64,000 bases of DNA from Leptolyngbyaceae cyanobacterium (GCA_965263355.1 CBDHHL010000056.1:544001-608000); one strand, 5' to 3'; shown: positions 1 to 51,904, counted from the first letter of the stretch. The notes: generated by a model not told the origin, from the sequence alone. Numbers and translations are program-made.

Positions 1-249
1 AACAGGAATATCTTGAGTTTTCGGATTTTGCTTAAGTTTTTCACAAACCTCAAATCCATTCATTCCTGGCATCATTACATCCAGTAAAATCAGATTTGGT
101 ACGATTTTATCTAGTTTTTTAAAAGCGCTCTCTGCACTTTTTGCAACCGAAACCTTATAATTAGATTCCTGCAAAAACTCATAGAGAAGTTTGATGTTGG
201 TAGGAATATCATCAACAATCAAAATCTCACTTCGTTGGGAACTCAACAT
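1..249 (-). CDS. Response regulator receiver-domain protein, N-terminal part (runs off the window)
   Basis: Manual translation from ATG at 249: MLSSQRSEILIVDDIPTNIKLL...PNLILLDVMMPGMNGFEVCEKLKQNPKTQDIPV, a typical REC domain; not in the ORF track because it is truncated. Confidence 0.9.
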   Translation of the reverse strand, partial: MLSSQRSEILIVDDIPTNIKLLYEFLQESNYKVSVAKSAESAFKKLDKIVPNLILLDVMMPGMNGFEVCEKLKQNPKTQDIPV

Positions 250-379
250 AATTTAGAGAGGTCCATAGGAATACATAATGAGAATGGCTAGCCTGTAAAA
301 GAAGGCTTTACTATTGGGTTAGCCTAGCTTACCTAGATTTCCCAAAAGGTGATGGATTCCTAAAAAGAAACTTCATGGT

Positions 380-3109
380 TTAAAGATTTAAATGGGGGCT
401 AACCAGCTGGACAATGCCTTCATCATCAAATTCATCAATCAGTTCCTGCAATTTGTTAACAAACTTTGTATAGTCTGGCCCCAACTTTTTAAGCTGAGCA
501 ACCTCGGTTTGAATATCTGAGATATAGCCTTTCTCAGCTGCTTCATAGAGAGGAATGAGTACGTTCGACGGTGGCACTATCATTTCAGATTCAGGATCAG
601 TTGGTACATTTTCAGTTTCAGGTTTTGGTTCATATTGCCAATCGAGTTGCAGCGTCTGCTGAAGCTGTTCTATTAATTCTTGTGCCTGTATTGGTTTAGC
701 TAAGAAGCTGCTGAATCCCATCTCAAGGCAGGCTTGTCGGTCAAACCCAGATAGATGGGCAGAAGAGGCAATAACCGGTACTGATTGGACCTCTGGCAAC
801 TTACGCAGCTGCTTAAATAAGCCATAGCCATCTAAATTAGGCATCAGCAAGTCTGTAATAATTAAATGTGGCAAAAATGATTGTGCTTTGGTCACCCCAT
901 CTTGACCATCCTTGGCTTCAATCAGTTCAAAACCAAGGGGATCTAAAAGGTTGACAATCACAGAACGATTTTCCCAACGATCATCAACCACCAAAATTTT
1001 TCTGCGTTTACCCTCATATCCAATTAACCGGCCTAACGTCTGCTGCTGAAGATCAGCCTGTATCCAGTCCTCTGCCAGGGGACAACATACTTTAAATTCA
1101 AAGGTACTACCCTCGCCCAGCACACTTTTAACCTGAATGTGGCTATCCATCAACTCTATAATCCTTTGGCTGATGGCAAGGCCTAACCCCGTCCCTTCAA
1201 TGACATGCTTAGTATTATCTGTCTGTTCAAAGGGGGCAAAAATTTTTTCAAGATTATCAGCAGCAATACCAATACCCGTATCTACAACAGCAAAATGAAG
1301 TCCTATCAATGCTGAATCATCCGGATCAGGTTGGACGCCCACCCTCAGGGTTACATTACCTGCTTCAGTAAACTTGACTGCATTACCAATTAGGTTTAGC
1401 AAAACCTGACGCAGACGTTTTTCATCAGCCACAATCCCCGGTGGTAGTGTATCAAGGGGCTCAAAAATGATAGGTAGTTTTTTCTGCTCGGCTCGAATAC
1501 GGCAAATTTCAACAACACCTTGCAAAAAAGAAGGAAAATGGAAGGGTTTAGGGTTTAGTTCTAGCTTTCGTGCTTCTATTTTAGAGATATCTAAAATATC
1601 GTTAATTAAGGTTAAAAGATGACTGCCACATTCGGCAATGGTCTGAATGCTGCTGCGATCTTTCTTGGAGCGATTTTTTTGAATTTGTAGAATTTGGGCA
1701 TAGCCTAAAATGCCATTTAGTGGCGTTCTTAACTCATGGCTCATATTGGCCAAAAACTCGCTTTTAGCATGGTTAGCCGTATCTGCAGCTTTCTTCGCTT
1801 CGGCTAACTGGGCAGTACGCTCAGCCACTCTAGTTTCTAACATTTCAAAGGAATCTTTGATTTGTTTGGCCATGCGATTAAACGCAGATGATAATCCCCG
1901 TAATTCTTGAATACCCTTGACCTGAAGCGTTTGCTCAAGGTCGCCCATGGCAATGGCTTGACTAGCCAGATTTAACCGCTGAATAGGAGTCGTAATCCAA
2001 CGTGATGTCAGTATTCCTAATAAAGTCGCAGTCATCAAAGCCGCAATGCATAACATGATGGTATTGCGGGTATTGGCATTAATAACTCCCATAAAATCAG
2101 CTTCTGGGATAGTCACCACCACTAGCCAATCTAAACCATAGTCATCTTGCCAGGGAACCACCTGAACAAACTGTCGCTCTCCGTCTATTCGAAAGTCTAT
2201 CTGTTGAATATTTTGAATATTTTCAAATCCCTTAAACTCTGTTTTTAGATGTTGAGCTGTTGCTCGAATTATTGGATCAGAACTGTTTAGGGCACTAAGG
2301 CGTTGGGTTTCTCCACCGGCAACGTTGTAAGTTTTGGCTTCGCTAGAATTTCCTATCAGTAGTCCATCTCGTTCGATCAAAAAGGCTTTGCCATTAGGAC
2401 TAATGTCTAGTTTTTTCAGAAAATTACTAATATCACTAAGCAGCAAATCAATACTAAATGCACCAAAAAACTTGCCTGTAGGCTCATATAGAGGAAACGT
2501 AGCTGATGCGGCGACATAGTCCTCAAATCCTTCTGCGGTGTAAATACTACTCCAGGTAGGTTTGCCTGCATTGACAGCATCGATATACCACTGGTCCTCT
2601 GGAGCATAGTACTCAGTTGCATCTAATACATCGGTGCGATTACCCTGAGTATCTGTACCATAGGTGTAGTCTTTCCCATCGGCTAATGAATGTTCTACTA
2701 TAGTGACGCCTTGACCTTCCAGCCAGCGTCCAGCTCCTACCCCTTCTCCTGACTCAAGGTAGTAGCCAATAAAATTGATATCTGGATAGGTTTCTGCCTT
2801 TTTCCATAGGTTACGCCCCATTAGCTCAAAATTCCTGATATCAACGGTTCCAGCCTGTAGCTCATCGACCGTTATAGTTCCCAATTCATGGGGAAGCGAT
2901 AGATAACTATCTAGATGTTGATCGACCCGATTACTAATTTCCTTACTAAGGCGCAAAACCAGGTCATTAACAGCCCTTTGGCTATTTCTAAAAGACAGGT
3001 ATCCAACTAACCCTACCGCTGAGAAAATTTGCAACATAAAGGGGACGACAAGCACAAGGCTTAAAGGCGTCCCACGGAGCGTTTGACGATCTTTGCTGTC
3101 CATAGCCAC
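380..3109 (-). CDS. Hybrid sensor histidine kinase (TM-dCache-TM-HAMP-HisKA-HATPase-REC)
   Basis: H-box [16 protein letters not shown]-box [11 protein letters not shown]-boxes DTGIG and GTGLGL, REC ILVVDD...DLLMP; two TM helices flank a periplasmic Cache region. Confidence 0.95.
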
Positions 3110-3348
3110 AACTTTTCGGGCGCAACATTACAGGAAAATAGATGACGATGAGTCTTGCCAACCTTCTTATCAGGGTATTGGAAAAAACTAAACTCAGCTA
3201 TGTTCGCTATAATGCCCAGGACAAAATGGATAACTGCAGGGTATAAATGGCTACGTTATTATGTTGCACTACACACAATTAGCTAACTTAAACAGCGTGT
3301 AGTGCATGAAAATCTAACGCTTACGTTTCTTTGATCAAAACCGTGAAC

Positions 3349-4119
3349 TCAAGAAGATTTAACTCCACATGCAAAGATAGTATAGAAGAACCCCTGGTCT
3401 GCATATTCAGGTAAATCTCTAACACGAATGTCAAGATTAACAAAGCCATTGTCTAAAAAACAATTCATTACATCCTGAGGATTTAGTTCCGTAGAGGGGA
3501 AACAGGTCTCCCCTACGCGATAATAATTGCCTGAACCACAGGCTGAAGTAATAAGGGTACCGCCAGGCTTCACCATGCCCATAATATTAGTCATGTAGAT
3601 ACGCCATTCCTCTTTATTAAGACTAATGCCTTCTGCGCAGTAATGGGCGGTTACCAATGGGTAAAAGTTACGTTTAGTCTCTCCTAGTGGATTAGCCTGC
3701 CTGACATCACCTGGTGTAACAAGAGTAACTTTTTGCCGTACTTCTGACTCCCTCTGTTGAATCTCTGAAGGGGTAGGGGTTTGATGTCCTTCAAGTTGCA
3801 GTACTTTTTGAGTAAAAGAATGCCAATCGTAGGCTGTTTTATCAGCAGAGAACCATTTTTTTAGTTCGGTTAAATTGGACTCAACATATTCAGAAACATG
3901 AATTTCTTGGGTTTTGGTCACCAAAGGTAAAATATGGGAGATAATGGGTCCACTACCGAAATCTAATGCCACCGGAACAGAATCGATGCGCTTTAAAGAC
4001 TCAGTCAAAAACTCCAAACAGTATTGTTCATCAGGCATGATACCTGAATAATATTCTTGTAAATACTGTTTAGGATCCCAATCGGAATAATTGGCGTATT
4101 TAATCTCAACAGCTTGCAT
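3349..4119 (-). CDS. NNMT/PNMT/TEMT-family SAM-dependent methyltransferase
   Basis: N-terminal WDPKQYLQEYY, SAM motif ALDFGSGP, AYDW and VKPGGTLI segments resemble the NNMT/PNMT family. Confidence 0.85.
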   Translation of the reverse strand: MQAVEIKYANYSDWDPKQYLQEYYSGIMPDEQYCLEFLTESLKRIDSVPVALDFGSGPIISHILPLVTKTQEIHVSEYVESNLTELKKWFSADKTAYDWHSFTQKVLQLEGHQTPTPSEIQQRESEVRQKVTLVTPGDVRQANPLGETKRNFYPLVTAHYCAEGISLNKEEWRIYMTNIMGMVKPGGTLITSACGSGNYYRVGETCFPSTELNPQDVMNCFLDNGFVNLDIRVRDLPEYADQGFFYTIFACGVKSS

Positions 4120-4172
4120 AGGTTTTCTCCAATTTTATCAAGGACTAGTCGTGTTCAGGGTGGTCATCAACA

Positions 4173-7100
4173 TTAACTAATATTGTCCAGATATTTTGCT
4201 AACAGGCAACTATCAATTGTTGGACAAGTAATATTGGATTGATTCAGGCCCTTTAGAGTATTTTGGCAATCAAACATTTGGGTGCCTGCTAACCAAATTT
4301 CTAATCGAGTAAGCGAATGTCCGTGCACAACTTCCGTCAAAATTTTAGCTAGTGGGCTGAGGGCGTTCTGCATTTTATTCAACTTAGTTTGCCAATGCTC
4401 ATAGGATACTTGTCTAACCGCATAGCCAACATTGTTAAGCTGATGGACAAGTTTATCTAACGGATAAGGGTAAGGATTTACTAGATGAAAAGCTTGATTC
4501 AAGGATTCTGTTTGCAATGATAGATGAACTATCGCTCGACTAACATAATCGACGGGTGTCATGTCGATTATCCAATCTAAATCAGGCGCACTTTCAAGCG
4601 CAATAACACTATTTAGAAAGCGGCTCATTAAATCTGTTGAGTTACATATTCCCGTTTGAGTGTGGCCGGTTACCATCCCTGGGCGATAGATACAAGCTGG
4701 AATACCCGCTGAAATCGCCCGTGTGATCAGCTGTTCTGCCACCCATTTGCTTTGGGCATAGCCGCCGACAATTCCAGATCCTTGGGCGATATTATCACTT
4801 TCATAAATAACCGATGGTCCCATGGTTAGCAATGATTCAAACACATCTAAGGTGGAGATGTAGTGAACGGGCTTAAGCCTATCATAGCTGGCAAGCTTTA
4901 ATATGGATTGAGTGCCCAGCACATTTGCCGCCTTTAAAGCTCCATAGGGGTAAAACAGATTCACACTTGCCGCACTGTGGTAAATGACATCTATAGTGTT
5001 AGCCAGGTGCTTAAATTGTTCTCTTTCTAGTCCCAAGAGAGGACGAGCTATATTGCCAATAAGGGGTTTGATTCTGCTGTAGGGAATATCAACATTTGGC
5101 AAATTCTGCTGTAGGGATTGACGTAATCGCTGATACCCTTCTGTAAGGGTTTGTGCCCGTACTAAGCAATAAACAGTAGCATCTGTATGTTGCAATAGGG
5201 TATGTAACAAGGAGGTGCCAATAAATCCTGTTGCCCCCGTTAATAAAATTGCCTTCGGATTTGTCCAATGTGATACAGGCTTTGACCAATGATTATATGA
5301 GGCAGCAGATGAAATCAGGTTAAGCGATGCTTCAGTCTCTAGTTCAGATAGAGACATATATTCTGTTATCGTAGAAGGCTTTCGGTCATGCTTTAATTGT
5401 TTGCCTACTAACTGTTTGGATAAATCTGCGATGGTTGGTTGCTTAAAGAAATCAGTAAAATTGAGTATTACTTTGAAAGAACGCTCAATTTGCGACATTA
5501 GCTGCATTACTCGTAATGAGTCACCACCCAACTCGAAAAAGCTATCATTAATCCCAATCGGTGAAATATTCAAAACATCTGCCCAAATACTGGCTAGTTT
5601 CTCTTCTTGAGCTGTTTCGGGTGCTACAAACAGAGCAGAGAGTTCTGGTCGGGACGAATCAGGTATAGGTAGCGCTTGTCGATCAATCTTACCATTGGCA
5701 TTGAGAGGAAAACTGTCTAACAGTACAAATGTTGCGGGCACCATGTACTTGGGTAGCTTTTGCATTGTATAGGTGCGCAGCTGAGTCGAAAGTGTATGGG
5801 CTATTTTGGCCTGGAGGGGATTATTGGCATAGGTATGCCAGACTTGACACGATGGTGGTGGGATGGGGGCTGGTAGTGGTTCAATACTCCCCAACTTATA
5901 GTCAACACCAGTGGCTTGGGGTTTAAACAGGGCATTAAAAGAACCATTATTGGCTAAACTGGGCCAGCTAATGGTCACATCGTAGGATAGCTCAGTCGCA
6001 AGCTGTTTGAGCGCTTCAGGATCGACGCCGACGATATTCTTAGTTTGCCTGAGATAATCTTTCAGATTAGCAACGTTACCAGAGAGTTGGATTTGCTTAC
6101 GTACATCAACAACACTGACATGGGGTAAAACTCTCGCATTAGGGATATTGCGAAAACCAAATACTTTGGTGGAGGAGTTCTTTAATCGTTGACGTAGTTC
6201 AGAAAAATCAGCATAGTGTGGCTGCCAATCTAACCAACGAGTTTCAAGTATGGATTGGGGCGTTGAGCCTACATGTAAGACAACGTCATAGCGAAATTGA
6301 CTTAGTTCATTATGAAATTGGCTTTGTTTCAGCAAAATTTGAACCTGGCTAATCTGGGGTAAATGCTTTTGCAGCGCCAAGAAAAAAGAAGGATCGATCG
6401 TGAGTTCTTCTTCTTGATATATCCTTTTCTGAATACGTTGCCAGAGTTCTGTGATGGGTAGGTCATCATCAGCATTGGCTAATTCTATAGCCGCTGCAAA
6501 TGCCTCTTGCAAGAGATAATTTCTGATGTCTCCGATAAACAGAGAACCCCCTGGTTTGATTAACCGTACAGCTTGTTCTATAACAGAAACTAAGTAATCA
6601 ATACTTGGGAAGTATTGTAAAACCGAGTTTAAGATGACCGTGTCATAGGAAGCAGGGGCTATATTTTCAAAGTTATCGGCAGCCCTATTTTTAAGGGTGA
6701 CTCGTGGTGCTAACTCTGGAGTCTTTGCCAACTGTTTTTTAATGTGGTCTAAAGAAACGTCTGATATGTCGGTGCCAATGTAGCTTTTACAGTGTGACAC
6801 TACTTGAAATAACAATAACCCTGTGCCACATCCCAGTTCTAAAACTCGTTCCGGCTTGAGTTGTAAGATTCGCTCAACAGTGGTGCTGACCCATTCCTGC
6901 ATCTCAATATCCGGCAGCAGCTCACCTGTGTAACTGCTGATCCAGCCACTGATGTTGAAAGTATCATCCCACTCTGTGTTGACTGTATTTAAGTGGTCAT
7001 CGTTATGAATTGCTTGCCATTGGTTGATTTGTTCTTGTTCTAGTTGGTCACGAATTGACCTGTCAGCAGTGGTGTTAGGGCAACTGCTTTGATCTGACAT

Positions 7101-8579
7101 ACAATGCTGCAAATGGCTTTTCACATAGGCAATTAACCGGTTACTACCCAGACTATCTGTTTGTGCTATAACAACAGCCTCTTGGACATCAGGATGCTGT
7201 GCTAAAAGAGTTTCAATTTCTTGTAATTCAACTCGAAAGCCTCGAATTTTAATTTGATTATCGGCACGCCCCAAAAATTCTAACTGGCCATCGTCACGAT
7301 AGCGAGCTAAATCACCCGTTTTATAGAGCCGGATAGCTTGTGTCTCTCCGTCTAAAGCAGTTACTAAAAACTTATTGGCTGTGAGATCAGCACGGTTTAG
7401 ATAGCCTGCTGCCAGGCTTCGTCCACTGAGATATAGGTCCCCTGAATTTCCCTGAGGGACTGGTTTCATACGCTCATCAAGAATATGGGCCTGAATATTG
7501 TTCAGGGGTTGTCCAATGGGAATACTTTCTCCGTGATTAAGCTTGATGGCATAGGGACCTGCTAGGTGACAATATGTAGCAACAACAGTACTTTCTGTTG
7601 GGCCATAGGTGTTTACCAACTGTACTTTAGGACTAACAAATCGTTGCCAGATAGTTACCCATTGGGGGAGTGCTCGCTCCCCACCAATAATGGTGAGTCG
7701 AATGGTTGAGGCTAAACCTAGGGTTTCTAGGGAGGCACACAATTGATGCCAAAAGGCAGTGGGTAAATCTAAAACAGTTATCTGTAACGTGTTGCATGCG
7801 TCAAGAAAGTCTGGCATTGACTTGAGCATGTTTTCATCACGGAGCACCAATGTAGCCCCTTGGGTAAGCGTTAGAAAGATTTCCTCAATGGCGGCATCAA
7901 AGCTAATTGATGAAAATTGCAATACGCGATCGCATGCGACAACACTATAGGCCTGGTTGGCTGAATGCACAAAATTTGACAACGCCCTCTGGTCTACCAT
8001 GACACCTTTAGGTTTACCTGTTGAACCAGACGTATAAATGACGTAAGCCAAATGGTCTAAAGTAGGCAACGATATGGGGTTATGGTCTGGCTGTTGGGTA
8101 ATAAGGGGCCAATCGGTTTCCAGGCAAATCAGTTTTGCTTTATGGGTTGGGAGAGCTGAAGCTAGAAATTGTTGCGTAAGTAACAATGAGACTTGAGAAT
8201 CTTCTAACATCCAGTCAAGACGCTCTGAAGGATAGCCAGGGTCCAAAGGAACATAGGCTCCACCTGCTTTCAGGATAGCTAATACCCCCACAATCATTTG
8301 AAAGGAGCGTTCAAGGCATAGACCGACCAATACGTCTGGACCGACACCTTGCTCACGTAAATAATGAGCAAGCTGATTTGCATAGGCATTTAATGTTTGA
8401 TAGCTCCAACATTGCCCCATAAACTCAATTGCCGGGGCTGTAGGCCGTTGCAGAACCTGAGATTCAAATAATCTACAGACAGATGCTGGGTTCTCAGCAG
8501 AAACAGTCAGGAGACAATCCCTAAAGTTGGTAAAAACCATGTATTGATTTCCCTCAAATACTGATAGCAGGTTTGACAA
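4173..8579 (-). CDS. Stand-alone NRPS-like enzyme: adenylation, embedded N-methyltransferase, thiolation and terminal reductase domains (A-NMT-T-R)
   Basis: A motifs YTSGSTGKPKG, YGPTE, YKTGDL, NGKIDR; NMT VLELGCGTG and LNSVLQYFP; T GGDSL; R LTGATGFIG and YAQSK; no C domain. Alternative ATG start at 8540. Confidence 0.95.
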   Translation of the reverse strand: MSNLLSVFEGNQYMVFTNFRDCLLTVSAENPASVCRLFESQVLQRPTAPAIEFMGQCWSYQTLNAYANQLAHYLREQGVGPDVLVGLCLERSFQMIVGVLAILKAGGAYVPLDPGYPSERLDWMLEDSQVSLLLTQQFLASALPTHKAKLICLETDWPLITQQPDHNPISLPTLDHLAYVIYTSGSTGKPKGVMVDQRALSNFVHSANQAYSVVACDRVLQFSSISFDAAIEEIFLTLTQGATLVLRDENMLKSMPDFLDACNTLQITVLDLPTAFWHQLCASLETLGLASTIRLTIIGGERALPQWVTIWQRFVSPKVQLVNTYGPTESTVVATYCHLAGPYAIKLNHGESIPIGQPLNNIQAHILDERMKPVPQGNSGDLYLSGRSLAAGYLNRADLTANKFLVTALDGETQAIRLYKTGDLARYRDDGQLEFLGRADNQIKIRGFRVELQEIETLLAQHPDVQEAVVIAQTDSLGSNRLIAYVKSHLQHCMSDQSSCPNTTADRSIRDQLEQEQINQWQAIHNDDHLNTVNTEWDDTFNISGWISSYTGELLPDIEMQEWVSTTVERILQLKPERVLELGCGTGLLLFQVVSHCKSYIGTDISDVSLDHIKKQLAKTPELAPRVTLKNRAADNFENIAPASYDTVILNSVLQYFPSIDYLVSVIEQAVRLIKPGGSLFIGDIRNYLLQEAFAAAIELANADDDLPITELWQRIQKRIYQEEELTIDPSFFLALQKHLPQISQVQILLKQSQFHNELSQFRYDVVLHVGSTPQSILETRWLDWQPHYADFSELRQRLKNSSTKVFGFRNIPNARVLPHVSVVDVRKQIQLSGNVANLKDYLRQTKNIVGVDPEALKQLATELSYDVTISWPSLANNGSFNALFKPQATGVDYKLGSIEPLPAPIPPPSCQVWHTYANNPLQAKIAHTLSTQLRTYTMQKLPKYMVPATFVLLDSFPLNANGKIDRQALPIPDSSRPELSALFVAPETAQEEKLASIWADVLNISPIGINDSFFELGGDSLRVMQLMSQIERSFKVILNFTDFFKQPTIADLSKQLVGKQLKHDRKPSTITEYMSLSELETEASLNLISSAASYNHWSKPVSHWTNPKAILLTGATGFIGTSLLHTLLQHTDATVYCLVRAQTLTEGYQRLRQSLQQNLPNVDIPYSRIKPLIGNIARPLLGLEREQFKHLANTIDVIYHSAASVNLFYPYGALKAANVLGTQSILKLASYDRLKPVHYISTLDVFESLLTMGPSVIYESDNIAQGSGIVGGYAQSKWVAEQLITRAISAGIPACIYRPGMVTGHTQTGICNSTDLMSRFLNSVIALESAPDLDWIIDMTPVDYVSRAIVHLSLQTESLNQAFHLVNPYPYPLDKLVHQLNNVGYAVRQVSYEHWQTKLNKMQNALSPLAKILTEVVHGHSLTRLEIWLAGTQMFDCQNTLKGLNQSNITCPTIDSCLLAKYLDNIS

Positions 8580-9439
8580 CCTGGACTTTTAAGAGCTGAA
8601 CACAGGGATACACCATCAGGCCATACTCTCGGACCTGAATAATGCCACTAAAGCACAAGACTCTGATTTAACAGAGAAAGGGAAGAAAAAAATGTCTTAT
8701 AAAATCATTGGTTGTGATACGACTTATGATGAACTAGGAAGATTTTGATCCCAACAGGAGATTACATTCACAGGCTGACGAGCTAGCTAGCTAGCTAACT
8801 TCATACCATAGAGGGATATTATAAGCTTCTCTATCTCTCATATTTTTTTGATACCCATAGTCATGGCAAATGGTAAACGTGTTATTTCAAAGCAAACGTT
8901 GACATGTGCTAGATATCAATACGCGACGATAATCTGCATTGATAAGCCGACTGGATCACTGGATCAAAAATAACCAATCATAAATCATCTGCTATTTCAG
9001 ATGATTCAGTAAAAACAAAAACATGAAGTTTCTCTCACTGATCTTGTTTTACGCTTTATTTCCCCTTGATAAAAACCGTATTTGGGATTTTACGTTGTAG
9101 TAAAAGTTACAGTGATTTGATTATCGCGTTTTTTCTTTTATGAATTTTTTATAGAAAACTTAGTTTTTAAGGGCTATGACATTGGTTCATACCTATGAAT
9201 ACTTAGATATTTTTTTTAGAAATTTTGTTGTATTATGCAGATTTTTATCCATATGGGTACCAAAACGTAAAAGTATGACTTTGAGAACAGCTTTGCAATG
9301 AATTGATAATCCGTCTTTAAATATTTTCTTAGTATTTTTCATGTTTTCTCAGTATTTTCTCAGTTAGCATCTGGAAATTCGGTTTTATCTAGCCATGCTG
9401 GCGACGTCCACCTATAGTTTTAGTCTCTGATGTTCTCGC

Positions 9440-9469
9440 TATGGGCGAGATGTGGACATCTCGCCCATA
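9440..9469. repeat. Near-perfect 30-bp palindrome
   Basis: TATGGGCGAGATGT-GG-ACATCTCGCCCATA, 14-bp arms. Confidence 0.85.
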
Positions 9470-9943
9470 AACCTGAAGTGAGCATTTTGGCACTCTAAAA
9501 AAGCAGATGTAAAACTAACATCTGTGAATATTCCCGACTCCCTGATGCCACCAAACTACACTTAGCCCAACTGGAAAAGGTTGTCGTTCTCAATCTAGAA
9601 TTCGATAGGCCTTTTCTTTAATGGCTGCTCTGTCTTTCTTGGTTTTTATGTTTACACTTTTTCTTGCTTCGTAATGTTACTACCAGGAGAGAATGAAATT
9701 CTTTGTCTACTGGAAAACAAAGGAATGAATCTTAAGAAACGTTGTTATGCTTTACTGGTATTTATACTTACTTCTGAAGTACGCACTGAGTATTTAAACC
9801 TTGTCCACCTCCAGAACTGCAGTTTTGCCGTAGAGGTAACTCCAGGTTGAACCTTGGACGTGGCTTAAGTACCTAAATTAAGGCAGGCTCTACGCCATTT
9901 GTATCGGTCATCTTGGCAGTTTTCTGCAAGGTAGCATTCATTT

Positions 9944-10021: not shown

Positions 10022-13000
10022 CTACACGATGTTGGTAAAGCTACTTTCTGTTAGGTTTTCTGTAGCTACCCCCTGCAATGTTGCTAAGACGCCATTGTCA
10101 ACAATGATGTCATTGCCAGCAAAGGTGAGCTGATTAAAGCTGAGACCACTGGACAAACTAATTAGATCGATACCCACCTTAAAGTCGGTAATAGTATCGA
10201 TACCGCTACCTACCATCAGGACAAAGGTGTTATAGCCCTGACCACCAGCAAGAACATCATTGCCAGCCCCACCGTCTAGGACGTCGTTCCCCGTCCCGCC
10301 AATCAACATATCGGTACCGATACCGCCTTTTAAGGTGTCGTTACCAATGCCCCCTTGGAGGAAGTCGTCGCCACTGTTGCCAAACAGCAAGTCGTCGCCC
10401 ATGCCACCCTTGACAGTGTCATGATCACCACCTCCCTTGAGGGTATCCTGACCCTGGCCACCAAACACCTTGTCGTTGCCAGTGCCTCCCTTAAGCTGAT
10501 CGTTACCGACACCCCCATCCAGGTCGTCGTTACCGTCTCCACCGTTGAGGATGTCGTTACCAATGCCCCCCTGGAGAAAGTCGTCGCCACTGTGACCAAA
10601 AAGTCGGTCGTCGCCCATGCCGCCCTTAACGGTGTCATCGCCACTACCCCCTCTAAGGGTGTCCTGACCCTGACCGCCAAACAACGTGTCGTTATCAGCA
10701 TTTCCTCGAAGCAGATCATTACCGGCACCACTATCTAAATTGTCGTTACCGTCTCCACCTCTTAAGGTGTCGTCACCAACACCATCTTTGAGAACATCGT
10801 CGCCCGTGCTACCCACAAGCAGGTCATTGCCGGGGCCACCCCTTAAGGTGTCATTGCCACCCTGACCGTGAATAATTTGGTCACCTGGGCCACCCACAAT
10901 GGTGTCGTCAGCATTAGTCCCCATAATGGTTTCTGCTGCCTCAAACAGCGGTATTACCTGGCCACGAATTGCACCGGGCGTCTTCAGTGCATCAGACTCG
11001 ACAGTGTGAATCTGAATGTAGAGTTCACCGGCTTGCAGTTCGTCAAGAAAGTCGCTGAGGGGCTTTGTTTCAGGATCGTCATCGGTATCGCCGTCGCCAT
11101 TCAGGTCAGTGGCATCGGCATCATTCCAGATACCGGTGATAATGCCGTTCTCAAAGTCAACAACAAGATTGTCGTCATCCTCACTGGGTAAGCCAAAAAT
11201 ATTTAAGGTATGGGGTCCATTTTCACCTTCGGGCCCCAAGTGTAAATGAATGCGCGTGACATCATTGGCTTCGGTGCGGCTGGCACTATCTTCCTTGAGG
11301 GCTAACCCTTCAAGCTTAATCTGATAGGCTAGGCCGCTGCCATCTTCTGCCAAGATAAATGTAGCGGTTGCACCTGCAGTGGAGTCAGGAATAGCGTCAT
11401 CTTGAACAACCTGTTCACCATCGGCTACCAGGGTAAACACGTCTGCTTTTAGGGGTGGCTCAATCTGACCACGAACACCACCAAGGATGCCTAATCTATC
11501 AGATTTCGCATCGTGGATTTGAACATAGAGGTCACCTGCCTCTAGCTCATCTAAAAAGTCGCTAAAGGCCTTAGATTCAGGACCATCATTGGTGTCACCG
11601 TCGCCGTTCAGGTCAGTGGCATCATCATCATCCCAAAAACCTTTGAGAATACCGTTCTCAAAGTCAACTTCAAGATCGTTGTCATCTTCACTGGGAAGAC
11701 CAAAGATATTTAAGGTATGGGGACCATTTTCACCCACAGGCCCGCTATGGATATGAATCTTGGTGACATCATTGTCCTCAGTACGGCTGGTCGGATCTGC
11801 TTTGAGGGTTAAACCATCAATGTCGATCTCATAGGCCAGGCCGTCTTTAGTGCGCGTAAAGCTAGCCTTGGCAGTGGCGGTCGAATCAGGAATAGAGTCA
11901 TCTTGAACAACCTGTTCACCATCGCCCACTAGCGTAAAGTTATCCACTTCGTCGATGGGGATAATCTGACCACGGGCACTGCCTGGGGTACCCAGTCGGT
12001 CGGATTCAACATCGTGGATTTGGATATAAAGATCACCGGCCCGCAAAGCTTCCAGAAACTCATTGAGGGGTTTGGATTCGGGACCGTCAGCGGTATCGCC
12101 ATCACCGTTGAGGTCTCTGGCATCATCGTTGTCCCACTGACCGGTAATGATCCCGTTCTCATAGTCCACTATGAGATTGTTGTCATCTTCGCTAGGCAGG
12201 CCAAAAATATTCAGGGTGTGGGGACCATTGGCACCGCGTTCACCGGCATGGATGTGAATACGAGTGACATCGTTGTCTGCGGTCCGATCGTCGGGGTTTT
12301 CCTTGAGGGTGAGATCATTGAGTTTGATTTGGTAGGCCAAGCCGCTGCCGTCTTCTGCCAGAATAAAGGTGACGGTAGCTGTGGCATCACTATCGGCAAT
12401 GGCTGGATCTTGAACGACTTGGGGACCGTTTGCGATCGCAACAAAAACCTCCTGCGTCGACGCCATTGGTTTAGTCACCGATGGATCCAGCTGGCCCCGC
12501 ACAGTACCGGGAGTACCGAGCTGATCGGTAGCCACATCATGGAGCTGCAGATAAAGCTGCCGCGCTTTTAACTCATCAATCAGCTGGCTTAATGGTTTAG
12601 TCTCGGGCGGATCATCGGTATCGCCATCCCCAGTTAGATCAACGGCATCATCATCTCCCCAGACACCAACAATCACGTTCTGTTGATGGTCAACCAACAA
12701 ATTATTGTCATCTTCGCTAGGAAGACCAAAGATATTCAGGGCGTGGGGACCGTTTAGACCTTCGGCCCCCTGATGTAGGTGAATCTTAGTAACATCATTA
12801 TCTGCCGTGCGCTTGGCAGGGTCCGCTTCCAGATTTAGGCCATCCAGTTCGATTTGATAGGCCAGCAGTTCCCCATGCTTAAGGGGCGTAAATGTCGCTT
12901 TTGCTGTAGCCGTGGAGTCAGGAATAGACGACGGTTGAACTACCTTGTCACCTTCAGCTAGCAGGGTAAAACTGTTGTCAGATTTGAGGGGCGTAATCTG

Positions 13001-13537
13001 TCCCCTAACTACACCGGGGGTACCCAGCTGGTCCGATGCCACATCGTGTACCTGGATGTAGAGTTCGCCTGCGTCTAAGGCGTCAAGAAATTCGCTTAAG
13101 GGTTTGGATTCAGGGTCATCATTGGTGTCACCATCGCCATTGAGATCCTTGGCATCCCGATCTTGCCAGATACCTGTGATGATGTTGTTTTCATAATCAA
13201 CGACCAAATCGTCGTCATCTTCACTAGGCTTACCAAAAATATTCAGGGTATGGCCACCATTAGTGCCGGGAGCCCCGACATGGAAATGAATCTTAGTAAC
13301 GTCGTTGGCTTCGGTGCGGCTAAGGGGATCTGCCTTAAGATTCAAACCATTGAGTTGGATTTTATAAGCTAACCCGCTATTATCTTCCGCCATAAGCAGT
13401 GTGACGATGGCAGTAGCGGTGGAATCAGTGATGGTTTCATCTTGCACCACCTGCTCCCCATCAGCTAGTGCAAGAAAGGCAGGTGTGGATTTATCTATTC
13501 CTGAAGGAGCTAGGCGATCAGTCATGGGTTCTAACAA
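10022..13537 (-). CDS. Secreted protein with five tandem CHRD domains and C-terminal RTX calcium-binding repeats
   Basis: Five repeats of IHxHxG...LY[IVL]Q[VIL]H...RGQ; many GGxGxDxLx nonapeptides; terminal DTITDF...D.I.L segment typical of type I secretion substrates. Likely ATG at 13525. Confidence 0.88.
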   Translation of the reverse strand: MLEPMTDRLAPSGIDKSTPAFLALADGEQVVQDETITDSTATAIVTLLMAEDNSGLAYKIQLNGLNLKADPLSRTEANDVTKIHFHVGAPGTNGGHTLNIFGKPSEDDDDLVVDYENNIITGIWQDRDAKDLNGDGDTNDDPESKPLSEFLDALDAGELYIQVHDVASDQLGTPGVVRGQITPLKSDNSFTLLAEGDKVVQPSSIPDSTATAKATFTPLKHGELLAYQIELDGLNLEADPAKRTADNDVTKIHLHQGAEGLNGPHALNIFGLPSEDDNNLLVDHQQNVIVGVWGDDDAVDLTGDGDTDDPPETKPLSQLIDELKARQLYLQLHDVATDQLGTPGTVRGQLDPSVTKPMASTQEVFVAIANGPQVVQDPAIADSDATATVTFILAEDGSGLAYQIKLNDLTLKENPDDRTADNDVTRIHIHAGERGANGPHTLNIFGLPSEDDNNLIVDYENGIITGQWDNDDARDLNGDGDTADGPESKPLNEFLEALRAGDLYIQIHDVESDRLGTPGSARGQIIPIDEVDNFTLVGDGEQVVQDDSIPDSTATAKASFTRTKDGLAYEIDIDGLTLKADPTSRTEDNDVTKIHIHSGPVGENGPHTLNIFGLPSEDDNDLEVDFENGILKGFWDDDDATDLNGDGDTNDGPESKAFSDFLDELEAGDLYVQIHDAKSDRLGILGGVRGQIEPPLKADVFTLVADGEQVVQDDAIPDSTAGATATFILAEDGSGLAYQIKLEGLALKEDSASRTEANDVTRIHLHLGPEGENGPHTLNIFGLPSEDDDNLVVDFENGIITGIWNDADATDLNGDGDTDDDPETKPLSDFLDELQAGELYIQIHTVESDALKTPGAIRGQVIPLFEAAETIMGTNADDTIVGGPGDQIIHGQGGNDTLRGGPGNDLLVGSTGDDVLKDGVGDDTLRGGDGNDNLDSGAGNDLLRGNADNDTLFGGQGQDTLRGGSGDDTVKGGMGDDRLFGHSGDDFLQGGIGNDILNGGDGNDDLDGGVGNDQLKGGTGNDKVFGGQGQDTLKGGGDHDTVKGGMGDDLLFGNSGDDFLQGGIGNDTLKGGIGTDMLIGGTGNDVLDGGAGNDVLAGGQGYNTFVLMVGSGIDTITDFKVGIDLISLSSGLSFNQLTFAGNDIIVDNGVLATLQGVATENLTESSFTNIV

Positions 13538-17594: not shown

Positions 17595-19208
17595 GTGAAT
17601 CCAATTCAGATCGCTACCTGGGATGAGGTGCCCGATCGTCAGCCGATGGCTGCGATCGCAGAGGGCGTTGATCTCGTCATTGTGCGTTGGGACGATAATG
17701 TTTCTGTTCTTTATGGTCGCTGTCAGCATCGCGGTGCCCTGATGGCCGATGGCTATATTGAAGGCGACAATATTATCTGCGGTGTTCACCAGTGGGACTA
17801 TCGCTTTGACAGCGGCGTCAGCGCCTATAGCAACGACGAATATTTAGATAAGTTCCATGCCTGGGTAGAGGACGATGGCGTATTTGTGGATGCCGCTGAA
17901 ATCATTGCCTGGAAGGAAGACCATCCCCAGCCCTATGATCGCGATGCCTACCAGGGAGCCTATGCCGATATCCATGGCACCATAGAAGAACCCCACACTA
18001 AACTCATTCACGAACTAGCCGCCAATGGCCTAAGTAAAACCGGACACCACGGCCCGGTAGCCGCCATGGGTGTTCCAGGTCCAGAATTGCCCCGTTGGGA
18101 GAATCTACAGTTTGTCACTGCACAGCTGGCCCGATTGCCCCAGTTAGAAGAGATTCCCGTGGCAACAGAGCTGGTGATTGGTCCCCGAGCCAAGCAGCCC
18201 CTCAAGTTAGACATGCCCATTTTTGTTTCAGACATGAGCTTTGGAGCCCTATCAGAAGAGGCTAAGATCGCCCTGGCTAAAGGTGCAGAATTAGCGGGCA
18301 CTGGCATCTGTTCTGGTGAGGGGGGCATGCTACCAGAGGAACAAGGTAACAACAGCCGCTACTTTTACGAATTAGCCTCTGCCCGATTTGGGTTTTCCTT
18401 GGAGAAACTGACACAGGTGCAGGCATTCCACTTTAAGTGTGGTCAGGGGGCTAAGACCGGCACAGGAGGACACCTGCCTGGCCATAAGGTAAAAGGCAAA
18501 ATTGCAGAAGTGCGGGGCCTGAAGGAAGGAGAACCTGCCGTTTCTCCACCTCGTTTTCCTGACTGGGAATCTGTTGAGGATTTTCGCAACTTTGCCGCAA
18601 CAGTGCGGGATATAACAGGCGGTATTCCTATCGGGGTCAAACTATCTGCACAACACATTGAGCAAGATATTGAAGCCGCTCTCCGCATTGGAGTGGATTA
18701 TATTATCTTGGATGGTCGTGGGGGTGGTACCGGTGCGGCTCCGCTGATCTTCCGAGATAACATTTCCGTGCCAACAATTCCAGCCCTGGCACGGGCAAGA
18801 AAATATTTGGATCAGCGCGGTGCCAGTCACGTCACCCTGATTATTACCGGCGGCCTCCGCACCCCTGCAGACTTTACCAAGGCCCTGGCCCTGGGTGCAG
18901 ACGGTATTGCTGTATCCAATGCGGCGATTCAGGCCATTGGCTGTTTGGGCATGCGGGCCTGTCACACCAACAATTGTCCGGTGGGCATTGCTACCCAGAA
19001 AGAGAATTTGCGATCGCGCCTGATCATCGACGATGCGGCCCTACGGCTGCAGCGATTCTTCAATGCCTCGGTGGAACTTATGCAGGTACTTGCCCGTGCC
19101 TGTGGTCATACCCATCTCAATCAGTTTTGTCAGGATGACTTAACCACCTGGGATCGAGAAATGGCCTACCTTGCAGGTGTTAACTATGCCGGTGTGACGC
19201 CATTGTAA
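17595..19208 (+). CDS. Rieske [2Fe-2S] domain fused to an FMN-binding glutamate-synthase-like domain
   Basis: Rieske CQH...CGVH; MSFGALS, SGEGG, GQGAK, DGRGGGTG; [3Fe-4S] motif CLGMRACHTNNCP. Confidence 0.92.
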   Translation: MNPIQIATWDEVPDRQPMAAIAEGVDLVIVRWDDNVSVLYGRCQHRGALMADGYIEGDNIICGVHQWDYRFDSGVSAYSNDEYLDKFHAWVEDDGVFVDAAEIIAWKEDHPQPYDRDAYQGAYADIHGTIEEPHTKLIHELAANGLSKTGHHGPVAAMGVPGPELPRWENLQFVTAQLARLPQLEEIPVATELVIGPRAKQPLKLDMPIFVSDMSFGALSEEAKIALAKGAELAGTGICSGEGGMLPEEQGNNSRYFYELASARFGFSLEKLTQVQAFHFKCGQGAKTGTGGHLPGHKVKGKIAEVRGLKEGEPAVSPPRFPDWESVEDFRNFAATVRDITGGIPIGVKLSAQHIEQDIEAALRIGVDYIILDGRGGGTGAAPLIFRDNISVPTIPALARARKYLDQRGASHVTLIITGGLRTPADFTKALALGADGIAVSNAAIQAIGCLGMRACHTNNCPVGIATQKENLRSRLIIDDAALRLQRFFNASVELMQVLARACGHTHLNQFCQDDLTTWDREMAYLAGVNYAGVTPL

Positions 19209-19259
19209 CTAGACTCGAATTAATTATTATCCCCCCGCTGTCTAATCAGGAGAACGTTT

Positions 19260-21212
19260 ATGTCCATCGCATCCCAATGGTTTAAGGTACTCGATTTAGA
19301 TGAACTGCCTGAAGGTCGTGTTAAAACCGTGACTGTGGGGCATAAAAGTCTCGCCATGACCCATTACGACGGGCAGTATGGCGCTCTGGATAATCGCTGT
19401 CCCCACCAGGGGGGACCGTTAGGGGAAGGTTCCATTGAAAATGGTTATCTGCGCTGTCCCTGGCACGGGTGGGACTATTGCCCTCTCACCGGTCAACCCC
19501 CCGGCGATCTGGACGTAGATGACGCCCTGGAAACATTTCCCGTGGAGGTCCGCACCGACGGTATATATGTCGGCATAGCAGACGAACAGGTCCACAGTCG
19601 CACCGTCACCGATGTCATGGCGGAAACCCTGGTGAACTGGGGGGTTACCCATGTGTTTGGCATGGTGGGCCACTCCAATCTGGGGCTGGCCGATGCCCTG
19701 CGTCGCCAGGAAGAACAGGGCAAACTCACCTTTATCGGCATTCGCCACGAAGGAGCTGGGGCCTTTGCCGCATCTGCCTATGCCAAACTCACCGGACGGC
19801 CCGCTGGGTGTCTTACCATTGCCGGTCCTGGAGCCACTAACCTACTGACCGGCCTGTGGGATGCCAAGGTGGATCGCGCTCCCATATTGGCCCTGACGGG
19901 ACAGGTCAGCACTCAGGTATTGGGCACTGGCAACTTCCAGGAATGCGATTTGTCTGCCGCCTTTAGTGGAGTCGCGGCCTGGAGCCAGACGGTACTCAGC
20001 CACAGCAAGCACGCAGAACTAATGACCCAGGCAGTCAAACATGCCCTGCTACAGCGGGATGTAGCCCACCTGATTTTCCCGGACGAAATCCAAACAGAAC
20101 CCGCTGCTCCGGAAGCCACTGCCTCTAGCCCCACAGGCAGACTTACTCCGTTGCAGATTGCACCGCCGCCTGACTCCCTGGCCCAGGCAATTGAGCAACT
20201 CAACGCGGCAAAACGCCCCGTCATTATCGTTGGCCACGGTGCCCGGTTCACCATGGAGCCTATCATTGCCCTGGCGGAAATGCTCAACGCTCCTGTGTTG
20301 ACCACCTTCAAAGGTAAGGGGCAAATCTCCGACCATCATCCCCTGGGCTGTGGCGTATTGGGACGCAGCGGCACCCCCATCGCCTCCTGGTTTATGAATG
20401 AGTCGGATCTGTTGTTGGTCTTTGGGGCCTCTTTCTCTAATCACACTGGCATTTATCCTGGTATGCCCATTATTCAGGTGGACTTTGACCCGCTGGCATT
20501 GGGCAAGTTCCATCCAGTGACGGTGCCCGTATGGGGAGAGATTAGTATTGTGGTGGAACAGCTCCGTTCTGCGCTGGCAGACGTTACCAACACAGAAGAC
20601 CAGCGATCTGAAATTGCAGAACGCTGGGCTATCTGGAGAGAAGAAAAGAAACGTCGGGAAGACGACGATCGCGGCAATGGCATCAACTCCGCTGCAATTT
20701 TTGCGGCCATGACTCGTCAGGTGCCTGCCAATGCGGTGATTTCAGTGGATGTGGGCAACAATACCTATTCCTTTGGTCGCTATTTTGAATGTGAGGCCCA
20801 GTCAGTCTTAATGTCAGGCTATTTAGGCTCCATTGGTTTTGGTTTTCCAGGGGCTATGGGTGCCTGGGCAGCGGCTGGTCATGAGCGGCCCATTGTTTCT
20901 GTGTCTGGAGATGGTGGCTTTGGCCAGTATATGGGCGAGTTTACTACGGCAGTGAAGTATGGCATGAATATTACCCACATTCTGTTGAATAATAGTGAGC
21001 TGGGTAAGATTAGTAAGGAACAACGGGCCGGGGAATGGGATGTCTGGCAAACGTCTTTGCATAACCCTAGCTTTGCTGAGTTTGCCGAGATTTGTGGCGG
21101 TAAAGGAATTCGAGTAACTGAGAAGTCGGCGTTAGATGAGGCGATTTCTGAGGCGTTGGCCTATGATGGGCCTGCCATTGTTGAAGTGGTGGCGGATGTA
21201 AATCTGATTTAG
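19260..21212 (+). CDS. Rieske domain fused to a ThDP-dependent pyruvate oxidase/acetolactate synthase-like enzyme
   Basis: Rieske CPH...CPWH; RHEGAGAF with catalytic Glu, GPGATN, ThDP motif GDGGFGQ...LLNN. Confidence 0.92.
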   Translation: MSIASQWFKVLDLDELPEGRVKTVTVGHKSLAMTHYDGQYGALDNRCPHQGGPLGEGSIENGYLRCPWHGWDYCPLTGQPPGDLDVDDALETFPVEVRTDGIYVGIADEQVHSRTVTDVMAETLVNWGVTHVFGMVGHSNLGLADALRRQEEQGKLTFIGIRHEGAGAFAASAYAKLTGRPAGCLTIAGPGATNLLTGLWDAKVDRAPILALTGQVSTQVLGTGNFQECDLSAAFSGVAAWSQTVLSHSKHAELMTQAVKHALLQRDVAHLIFPDEIQTEPAAPEATASSPTGRLTPLQIAPPPDSLAQAIEQLNAAKRPVIIVGHGARFTMEPIIALAEMLNAPVLTTFKGKGQISDHHPLGCGVLGRSGTPIASWFMNESDLLLVFGASFSNHTGIYPGMPIIQVDFDPLALGKFHPVTVPVWGEISIVVEQLRSALADVTNTEDQRSEIAERWAIWREEKKRREDDDRGNGINSAAIFAAMTRQVPANAVISVDVGNNTYSFGRYFECEAQSVLMSGYLGSIGFGFPGAMGAWAAAGHERPIVSVSGDGGFGQYMGEFTTAVKYGMNITHILLNNSELGKISKEQRAGEWDVWQTSLHNPSFAEFAEICGGKGIRVTEKSALDEAISEALAYDGPAIVEVVADVNLI

Positions 21213-33496: not shown

Positions 33497-35188
33497 TTAT
33501 TCCCCAAAGGTATCAACCTGAGACTGTTCCACCAGAATTACAAAAATTGTCTCTAGACCATTAGAGAATCGCAGCGTATTGACCAAATCGTGCTCAAGGT
33601 CAATCGCTGAGTCAACGATAATCATATCGGGCCTAAGGGCCAGTGCCTTTTCAATTCCGTCTTTGCCCGTAGCCGCTTCAGTTACGGTATAGCCCCGTCC
33701 CAGCAAAACCTGCGTCAAATTTTGGGTGGTGGCAACATCCATATCCACCACCAACACTTTGCGATTTGACATGCCCTGGTCTAACAAGGTTCTAATATCA
33801 TTGAGCAATAACTCCGTATCGATGGGCTTGGTTAAATAGCGATCCACCCCCAAACGGTATCCTCTTTCTTGATCTTGAATAATCGAGAGAATAATGGTGG
33901 GAATGCCCATAGTCGCCGGGTTATTTTTAAAGACAGCGGCTAAGTCAAAGCCATTGATGGTGGGCATCATCACATCCAAAATGATTAGATCCGGTGTTTC
34001 TGCCTTCACCTGGTTGAGGCCATCCATGCCATCCTTGGCAGTTCTAACCTGGTAGCCAGACGCCTCTAATTCCTGGCGTAGCAACTGGCGAATATGGGGC
34101 TCATCATCAATGACCAAAATTGTTTTATGAGATTTTTCTGTTGGGGTTACGGCGCGATCAACATTTTCTTTTAGTTGTTGTATCAGGGATTGCCAGTCGG
34201 CATTAACCGCCCTACCTGCTTGGGCCATATGGATTGGTAGGGAAAAGGAAAACGTGCTACCCTGCCCTAGCTCGCTTTCCGCCCAAATGCGTCCATTGTG
34301 ATGGTCGATAATTTGTTTACAAATGGGTAATCCCAGCCCAGACCCCTTTGGTTTATCGGTCATTACTTCCCCCACCTGGACAAATTTCCCAAACACTTTT
34401 TCTAGATCATTCTCAGAAAGACCAATGCCCGTATCAATAACGCTGACGACAATTTCGTTATCTTGTTGATAGGCGCGACAGGTGACAGAGCCCCTATCAG
34501 TAAACTTAGTAGCATTGGACAACAGGTTAATTAACACTTGAACCAGGCGGTTGCGATCTCACAGTACCTCTGGCAACCCTGGTTCAAACTCACAAATCAT
34601 ATCTAAACCAATGGTTTGAACCAGCACAGATGTGGCCGAAATCGCCTGGTTAATCACCGCTGTAATATCAGTCGGTTGCATATTCCAGTCGATTTTGCCA
34701 GCTTCAATTTTAGAAATATCCAATACATCCTTGATCAAGGCTGTCAGACGCTCACCCTCAGCCACAATGATGCCAAGGTTGTCACGGACCTGTCGTACCG
34801 CTCGCTCAGTCTTTTTGGTTTCAGTAGTTACAGCCGGTAGTATCGTATCTTCCAGCTTTTTTTGGATCAGTTTTGCAAACCCTAAAACTGAGGTGAAGGG
34901 CGTCCGTAACTCATGGGAAACCGTAGACAGAAAGTCGGTCTTCATCCGCGCCACTTCTTTCTCAGCCGTCATATCCCGAATCAAAACCACCACACCATTT
35001 GACTGATTTGGGTCCGAATTAGATGTAGTTTTAGTATCTTGCGTCAGCAGTAACGTACCATGGCTAGATTTCAGCAACTGACGGGCCTCTTCCAACACCA
35101 GAGACGCCACTTCTTGAATCTCTGGGCAATTAATAATCTTTTCTGACAGCTTAAACAGCAGGAAAATTTCCTTATACCTACCCAACAA
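33497..35188 (-). pseudogene. Hybrid histidine kinase (HisKA-HATPase-REC-REC) with in-frame stop and probable internal deletion
   Basis: SHELRTP; PEVL*DRNRLVQVLINLLSNA with TGA at 34559-34561 in frame; a GAF-like start joins directly to a PAS C-terminal VVVLIRDMT. Confidence 0.85.
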
Positions 35189-35215
35189 CTCCTTTGATTA
35201 AAAATGCATTAGCCT

Positions 35216-35242
35216 GTAGGGGCAATCCCTTGTGGATTCCCT
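35216..35242 (+). repeat. REP-like palindromic repeat
   Basis: GTAGGGGCAATCCCTTGTGGATTCCCT; inverse copy at 53987-54013. Confidence 0.75.
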
Positions 35243-35284
35243 GCGATTCGACAGGATTTCGCATTAGCTTTCCCTCAGCTTACT

Positions 35285-50914: not shown

Positions 50915-50950
50915 GCAATCTTATTTTACTTTAAATATTAGGAAATTCGC

Positions 50951-51865: not shown

Positions 51866-51904
51866 TTGATACCTAAAGTAAACCATACTTAAATTATTCT
51901 TCCT

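Follow-up and report, generated by a model that had tools for sequence, protein, structure and literature searches.

Do a single-module nonribosomal peptide synthetase (NRPS) and the membrane kinase encoded next to it form a signal synthase and its receptor? A 64,000-nt stretch of DNA from a Leptolyngbyaceae cyanobacterium (GCA_965263355.1, CBDHHL010000056.1:544001-608000; hereafter the window) raised this question, since positions 1 to 8579 carry a cassette for an adenylation-methyltransferase-thiolation-reductase (A-MT-T-R) enzyme, an NNMT-family methyltransferase, a membrane hybrid histidine kinase and a receiver-domain protein. A sequence-only reading had proposed that the two enzymes turn a basic amino acid into a carboxylate-free methylated amine which the kinase senses. 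From comparison with relatives we conclude that the cassette is probably a cognate signal synthase-receptor pair, while true cell-to-cell autoinduction is possible but somewhat doubtful. The substrate type, the removal of the carboxylate and the linkage of the kinase stood up in that reading; its argument from a lost arginine, the specificity of the fourth gene and the NNMT as a fixed part did not. Below, fetched loci of relatives carry L-numbers and genomes G-numbers.

Organization of the locus

ORF calling and Pfam agreed with the earlier description of four co-oriented genes. All lie on the minus strand and cover positions 8579 to 1 with gaps of 53, 239 and 130 bp (Table 1). Gene 1 has AMP-binding, a methyltransferase within AMP-binding_C, PP-binding and NAD_binding_4 domains; gene 2 is NNMT_PNMT_TEMT; gene 3 has dCache_1, HAMP, HisKA, HATPase_c and Response_reg; and gene 4 begins with Response_reg, the DNA past it lying outside the window. 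For gene 1 the ATG at 8540 was preferred because most close homologs begin there in alignment. Condensation (C), thioesterase, polyketide synthase (PKS) and exporter domains, which the sequence-only reading had found missing nearby, were absent from the four cassette genes and from 21 window ORFs scanned (10022 to 40056). The NRPS is preceded by a non-coding stretch of 1.4 kb, beyond which a CHRD/RTX protein is encoded. Positions 1-9826 are also covered by independent contigs, no piece of which shows more than one difference (run X1), so that an assembly artefact can be dismissed. Among named relatives, the marine filamentous Leptolyngbya PCC 7375 (L001, a cultured carrier of the cassette), Adonisia and Leptothoe come closest, with 67-74% NRPS identity.

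The synthase is predicted to methylate and reduce lysine

Motif anchoring gave an A-domain code of DAEDIGTVVK, which matches the lysine-activating MxcG at 10 of 10 positions (Table 5 in PMC12195549); close homologs have the identical code or differ at 1-3 residues. The code is strong grounds for inferring that the A domain activates L-lysine, in line with the basic amino acid proposed earlier. The MT (LELGCGTG), T (GGDSL) and R (TGATGFIG and YAQSK) motifs are present. The MT is placed inside the small A subdomain as in the solved interrupted A domain 5wmm, which we take to be an N-methyltransferase-interrupted domain. The R domain, whose presence bears out the removal of the carboxylate, is nearest to that of MxaA (4u7w, 300 bits; next best 213), a four-electron reductase that reduces to the alcohol. 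Since the enzyme lacks a C domain, N-alpha-methyl-lysinol, or an aldehyde cyclising on the epsilon-amine, is the expected product. The final product is likely N-methyl-lysinol or the cyclic imine, methylated further by the NNMT/GntF-like enzyme. The best NCBIfam model for the NRPS was MxcG, but orthology was ruled out by the score (805 bits against a cut-off of 2300) and the missing C domain.

The NNMT occupies an exchangeable slot

Gene 2 belongs to the NNMT/PNMT/INMT family. It shares the PF01234 fold with GntF and the animal enzymes, and its best PDB matches are the human NNMT, INMT and PNMT structures. Most plausibly it adds further N-methyls. It also passed the NCBIfam GntF model NF041360 (123.6 bits, cut-off 60). 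This cut-off is permissive because a decarboxylase-linked NNMT homolog passed it too, with 83 bits. The guanitoxin pathway was ruled out, as only GntF matched and gntA-E, G, I, J and T were not among the visible neighbours. Guanitoxin production cannot be read from the 'GntF' name that these cyanobacterial proteins receive automatically, and such annotations in these genomes call for caution.

In two relatives the slot holds, in place of the NNMT, a BesD/HalD-like gene scoring far below the cut-off and a SET-domain gene, and in homolog P0060 SET is fused to the NRPS. Both families act on lysine, so these neighbours agree with the lysine code. The slot is exchangeable, the NNMT being absent or replaced elsewhere.

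A module of this kind might serve in trans a larger pathway, NRPS/PKS or guanitoxin-like, encoded elsewhere, for which the GntF match and a distant Gly-type paralogue (L075) beside a free C-domain gene could be cited. However, release is provided for by a domain of the enzyme itself, which has neither a C domain nor a long N-terminal docking region, the GntF cut-off is permissive, and neither C, ketosynthase or other gnt genes nor any larger cluster adjoin the lysine-type loci examined. We regard this as highly improbable.

Sensor and synthase are linked across genomes

The sequence-only reading had named the absence of the kinase beside the synthase in other genomes as its refutation, and the kinase was found to be conserved there. 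A search based on the NNMT returned 13 genome loci, and a sensor of the same clade adjoins in 11, co-oriented, convergent (L010) or divergent (L012, L013). Among 101 genomes of the order of G001, in each of which the top five NRPS candidates were scored, seven carry the NRPS; the best sensor matches (457-547 bits) fall in the same seven, 0.35-2.3 kb from the NRPS, and three of these are absent from the sensor profile. The three best NRPS hits among 301 genomes of the order of G004 were G513, where the sensor is adjacent and divergent, G004 itself (a profile member) and G712. Only the two profile members scored above 490 bits in 401 genomes taken phylum-wide, indicating that the cassette is rare.

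We placed 57 sensor domains in a quick IQ-TREE tree. A branch of 23 rows contained all 21 synthase-linked rows and two orphans; 11 rows had built the profile, L004 and L014 are near-duplicates and L011 contributes two rows. Nine members had been found from the sensor side only, of which six adjoin a synthase, one is split and two are orphans. The synthase was the lysine NRPS at L071, L072, L073 and L091, and a methyltransferase with a pyridoxal phosphate (PLP) decarboxylase at L081 and L082. None of 43 control loci of next-best paralogues (~8-10 kb flanks; 23 are rows of the tree and 20 were left unplaced; 11 tree rows with 1.5-kb flanks left out) had an NRPS-R, NNMT or decarboxylase BLAST match, lone methyltransferase-domain matches aside. 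The Fisher values for linkage were tiny, as computed ignoring the relatedness of the genomes.

One could suppose that the genes are an inherited island lacking functional coupling, which an abundant kinase joined by chance in an ancestor. The kinase family is indeed abundant, with 5-7 profile matches (paralogues) per genome, most linked genomes are related, and split or orphaned loci occur (G002, G712, L008, L094). Nevertheless, the linkage persists over three gene orientations, four cyanobacterial families, NRPS identities down to 51-53% and a swap to an unrelated decarboxylase; the controls are unlinked, and the pairing recurs with two other sensor types. Hitch-hiking is therefore quite improbable in our estimate.

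The sensor appears to follow the chemistry

At L012, L013, L081 and L082, two of which had been chosen as intended controls, the NRPS is replaced by a methyltransferase and a group II PLP decarboxylase while a sensor of the same branch is kept. Decarboxylation is a different means of losing the carboxylate. The NNMT is present at L012, L013 and L082 and absent at L081, and the methyltransferase of this sister cassette had no significant PDB match. A second case is L073, whose NRPS is sister to that of L003 (84% identity) and whose genome gave no NNMT match. The kinase cores of the two (HAMP to HATPase) are 87-91% identical whereas the sensor domains are only 57-67% identical; the sensor domain of L003 is 78-85% identical to that of the window. 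Residue G127 is Gln in L073 and in three other lysine-type loci with no adjacent NNMT, while G513, with its NNMT elsewhere, keeps Gly. Strand alternation suggests that residue 127 may face the pocket.

Paralogous A-MT-T-R enzymes (38-45% identity), whose A codes are presumably of Gly, Ala or Pro type, adjoin either another dCache kinase family, with 21% profile identity to the clade sensor, or permease-PAS-GGDEF-EAL/kinase fusions. In the sample from the order of G004, a membrane sensor adjoins 13 of 18 stand-alone paralogues. Searched from the other side, the second sensor family had five top-ranking hits outside its training set; an NRPS-R gene adjoins four of these, one of them a locus where both genes are broken, and none of 17 lower rows. 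At L111 synthase and second-family sensor are both broken. The permease fusions at L100-L103 would represent a transporter-like receptor tied to cyclic di-GMP (c-di-GMP).

The sensor domain has a dCache fold without the amino-acid-site arginine

The kinase has the architecture TM-dCache_1-TM-HAMP-HisKA(H458)-HATPase-REC(D753), with two hydrophobic (transmembrane, TM) segments flanking the sensor. An AlphaFold model of the sensor domain (predicted local distance difference test score, pLDDT, 90) had the dCache fold. In Foldseek, amine and amino-acid chemoreceptors scored alike, PctD ranking second, and structural-alignment identity to any solved domain was only 12-17%. With the dCache_1AA receptor PctA the sensor shares the dCache_1 fold and the pocket residues Y167, W174, Y190 and D221 (Y121, W128, Y144 and D173 in PctA), but the ligand-carboxylate Arg of PctA (R126) aligns with D172. 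The dCache_1AM receptors PctD, PacA and McpX likewise have no Arg at the amino-acid site, and the aromatic pair W174/Y175 and the terminal D221 match F188/Y189 and D235 of PctD. Known dCache_1AM members sense environmental amines, whereas here, with Asp at the Arg site, the ligand is proposed to be the product of neighbouring genes. The clade signature comprises W129 (23/23 rows), D147 (19/23), D172 (22/23), F195 (21/23) and Y198 (23/23). PctD in addition has a cation-pi aromatic (W155) and an R103-D133 pair above the pocket; the tryptophan considered beside them in the clade, W129, is invariant at the level of sequence. The closest sensor outside the branch (L051:5952-10405) lies divergent beside a terpene synthase, possibly another synthase-sensor pair.

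Gene 4 had been read as a receiver protein. Its relatives are ~440-aa cytoplasmic REC-HisKA-HATPase kinases and not lone receivers. After gene 4 in L001, L002, L005 and L071 comes a conserved ~420-aa protein with no Pfam match, and in three of these loci a CheA/CheW cluster is next. The ~420-aa protein (L001:15490-16791, L005, L071) followed by the convergent CheA/CheW cluster is a candidate output of the cassette.

A block of DNA upstream of the synthase is conserved

Within the 1.4 kb upstream of the NRPS, one block is conserved (Table 1); the other non-coding bins showed 10-50% identity, except for the last 40 nt before the ATG. The block contains an inverted repeat. Its strict pattern occurred in the window and at five distinct fetched places (L001, L003, L015=L085, L071 and L073), all upstream of a lysine-type NRPS, against a chance expectation of 0.3 in the 2.15 Mb of fetched DNA. 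No match to the relaxed pattern lay upstream of 11 other synthase genes, and the repeat is missing in more distant cassette members. A scan for promoters and terminators gave fewer matches than shuffles and was uninformative.

The kinase could instead sense an outside amine from a host, alga or neighbour and switch the synthase on, in which case the product would be not its ligand but an effector (defence compound, osmolyte or surface modifier). Genes for regulators often lie next to those they control. The palindrome conserved upstream of the synthase would fit, amine-type pockets are common among cyanobacterial paralogues, and the small amines bound by dCache amine sensors are common ones (10.1101/2023.04.06.535858). 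However, sensing of an external cue would not account for divergence confined to the sensor where the NNMT was lost or for other synthase subfamilies carrying other sensor families, and it leaves unexplained why the sensor is usually co-oriented downstream of the synthase. We consider it rather unlikely.

Proposed mechanism and its weak points

We propose that the A domain would activate L-lysine and load it on T. The embedded MT, by homology to NRPS N-methyltransferases, would methylate the alpha-amine, and R would release the product reductively, most likely as the alcohol N-methyl-lysinol or else as an aldehyde closing to a seven-membered cyclic imine. The NNMT-like enzyme would add methyls, with the epsilon- or a ring nitrogen as the probable site. 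The product would reach the periplasm and bind the distal dCache pocket, where Asp in place of the carboxylate-binding Arg, together with the aromatics, should suit a cationic methyl-amine. The hybrid kinase may then signal through its REC and the downstream REC-kinase, with outputs that might include, more speculatively, the palindrome upstream of the synthase.

Several observations weigh against a cognate, autoinducing pair. The linkage counts are phylogenetically dependent, as close marine relatives dominate. Many genomes are incomplete metagenome-assembled genomes, and support for the sensor branch is moderate (SH-like approximate likelihood ratio test, SH-aLRT, 86). L008 has NRPS and NNMT with no adjacent sensor, and L009 an NRPS fragment only, likewise with none. 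The cassette of G002 is split (L002, L085), with NNMT-kinase-REC behind transposases and an NRPS, truncated at residue 1338, on another scaffold. In G712 the sensor, still preceded by a SET gene, lies 75 kb from the NRPS (L093/L092), and the NNMT of G513 stands alone. The high-scoring sensor of G640 (order of G004) has no lysine-type synthase nearby; nor do the orphan sensors L080, at a contig end, and L094 have a synthase nearby, and the genome of L080 gave no NRPS or decarboxylase match. Of the 18 stand-alone paralogues five are not next to a sensor: three have none, one is split, and one adjoins an MFS-HEAT-cNMP fusion. The sensor swap at L073 is a single event, and the sister-cassette decarboxylase matches aromatic and lysine decarboxylases alike, so that its ligand may differ.

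Two arguments of the sequence-only reading lost their force in the same comparison. Outside the clade, 27 of 34 cyanobacterial paralogues have an acidic residue at the Arg position (E in 25, D in 2). As an acidic residue is the family norm, Arg loss is a broad mark of non-amino-acid sensors and not a cognate mark; the Arg is replaced, as claimed, but this is not special to the kinase, and the argument that its loss proves a cognate pocket was rejected. Likewise, the same kinase and REC-kinase pair occurs at 10 of 20 control loci, which ruled out gene 4 as specific to the cassette and makes it a generic partner. Furthermore, a dicationic amine should need an exporter, and the cassette has none. 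Because it encodes no DNA-binding protein either, autoinduction can be put forward only as a possibility.

The lack of an exporter and a transcription factor would suit a product perceived solely by the cell or filament that makes it, as periplasmic metabolic feedback or a cue for filament length or sheath. The hosts are filamentous and a shared periplasm or sheath is plausible. This alternative has the first five steps above in common with the best explanation. Against it, a dedicated enzyme that consumes ATP, S-adenosylmethionine (SAM) and NADPH, with exchangeable tailoring and matching sensors, would be more typical of a signal that bears identity. We judge it unlikely.

The preferred reading, a signal synthase beside its receptor, can be extended only tentatively, and we lean slightly away from the extension as a whole. 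Filamentous cyanobacteria may possess a modular family of cell-cell signals, N-methylated amino alcohols or amines made from Lys, Gly, Ala or Pro by stand-alone A-MT-T-R enzymes or decarboxylases. Interchangeable methyltransferases would diversify these signals, and dCache kinases or permease-like c-di-GMP enzymes, co-evolving with them, would serve as readers. The window would then hold a methyl-lysinol 'dialect' that induces itself via positions 8916-8942, a native quorum-sensing circuit. Both dCache kinases and small NRPS genes are abundant as orphans in cyanobacteria, and the cassette pairs one set with the other. A specific ligand, methylated lysinol or its cyclic imine, is also predicted for one defined receptor. 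Provided that the product passes from cell to cell, mat- and biofilm-forming cyanobacteria would gain a defined, self-made signalling circuit whose variants are strain-specific.

Other features of the window

A short element at 9790-9870 occurs in many copies in the source genome. Numerous contigs break off or diverge at this point, and depth rises about fourfold. Beyond it, a minus-strand gene (10022-13537) with a higher GC content than the cassette encodes 1171 aa with RTX calcium-binding repeats and five CHRD domains. Adjacent Rieske fusions, a glutamate-synthase-like FMN domain and a thiamine-diphosphate enzyme lie at 17595-21212 (plus strand). At 33497-36328 (minus strand) an OpuAC glycine-betaine-type substrate-binding protein is directly upstream of a hybrid kinase. 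The HisKA (34559-35188) and HATPase-REC (33497-34537) parts of this kinase fall into separate ORFs, possibly through a frameshift or truncation; binding protein and kinase would form a second methylamine-type sensing module. By eye, 42080-63411 (plus strand) is an exopolysaccharide cluster with many glycosyltransferases and three tandem sulfotransferase-like genes at 50015-52855.

Table 1. Coordinates of the cassette, its upstream DNA and related loci (window positions unless a locus is named; HK, hybrid kinase; PPTase, phosphopantetheinyl transferase)
Feature	Position	Strand	Remarks
A-MT-T-R enzyme ORF	8579-4173	-	1468 aa from TTG; likely start ATG 8540 (1455 aa)
NNMT-family methyltransferase	3349..4119	-	256 aa
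Membrane hybrid histidine kinase, proposed receptor	380..3109	-	909 aa
Periplasmic dCache_1 sensor domain	2072..2974	-	HK residues 46-346
N-terminal receiver domain, gene 4	1..249	-	83 aa visible; cut by window edge
Conserved non-coding block, candidate promoter/operator	8821..8980	-	52-69% identity to 8 relatives, 40-nt bins
Inverted repeat TCAATRC-N11/13-GYATTGA, candidate dimeric-regulator site	8916..8942	.	
BesD/HalD-like gene and small SET-domain genes in tailoring slot	L071:10346-11604, L072:4600-5959, L093:8510-9022		iron ligands of BesD/HalD-like gene not evident by eye
Sister cassette, methyltransferase and group II PLP decarboxylase, fused or separate	L012:7355-9832, L013, L081:6719-9300, L082:10573-13974		
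A(-MT)-T-R with Gly/Ala/Pro-type codes beside second dCache family	L076, L077, L079, L095, L104, L108, L109, L110, L125, L126, L112, L111		
Gly-type A-MT-T-R beside amino-acid-permease-PAS-GGDEF-EAL or -kinase fusions	L100, L101, L102, L103		PPTase gene in two

Comparison with known systems

In CqsA/CqsS, LqsA/LqsS/LqsR, PhcB/PhcS/PhcR and RpfF/RpfC/RpfG the gene for a signal synthase neighbours those for a membrane histidine kinase and a receiver protein, and phcBSR has a SAM-dependent synthase and a receiver-kinase as third partner. The cassette has the same gene logic, and its synthase and membrane kinase are conserved together as in a quorum-sensing cassette. These systems make fatty-acid-derived signals by PLP, crotonase or methyltransferase enzymes and read them with multi-TM sensors; to our knowledge neither an NRPS reductase nor a periplasmic dCache domain occurs in any of them. 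In the searched, mostly non-subscription literature on cyanobacterial quorum sensing, dCache kinases, NRPS and A-MT-T-R enzymes, we found no description of such a module.

The chemistry is closer to that of valdiazen and leudiazen (HamD, MgoA and PvfC of Burkholderia and Pseudomonas), where a stand-alone A-T-R enzyme also turns one amino acid into a small reduced molecule, there a diffusible one. The A-T-R enzyme HamD makes valdiazen, which induces its own genes (PMC5878181). The main text of that paper names AraC-, GntR- and LysR-type neighbours and does not contain the word 'receptor'. Those enzymes use Val or Leu with diazeniumdiolate-forming partners, for which no gene was found in the window or the lysine-type loci, whereas the cassette combines Lys, an embedded N-methyltransferase, NNMT tailoring and an adjacent membrane dCache kinase. 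Myxochelin MxcG (C-A(Lys)-T-R) has the identical Lys code and myxalamid MxaA the nearest R domain, but the cassette has neither a C domain nor an aryl or polyketide donor, and it has an embedded N-methyltransferase. The other genes of the guanitoxin gnt cluster, as given in PMC10673588, are not beside gene 2. Taken together, the cassette appears to work like valdiazen synthesis and to be wired like CqsA/S or PhcB/S/R, while apparently belonging to neither of them nor to the guanitoxin cluster.

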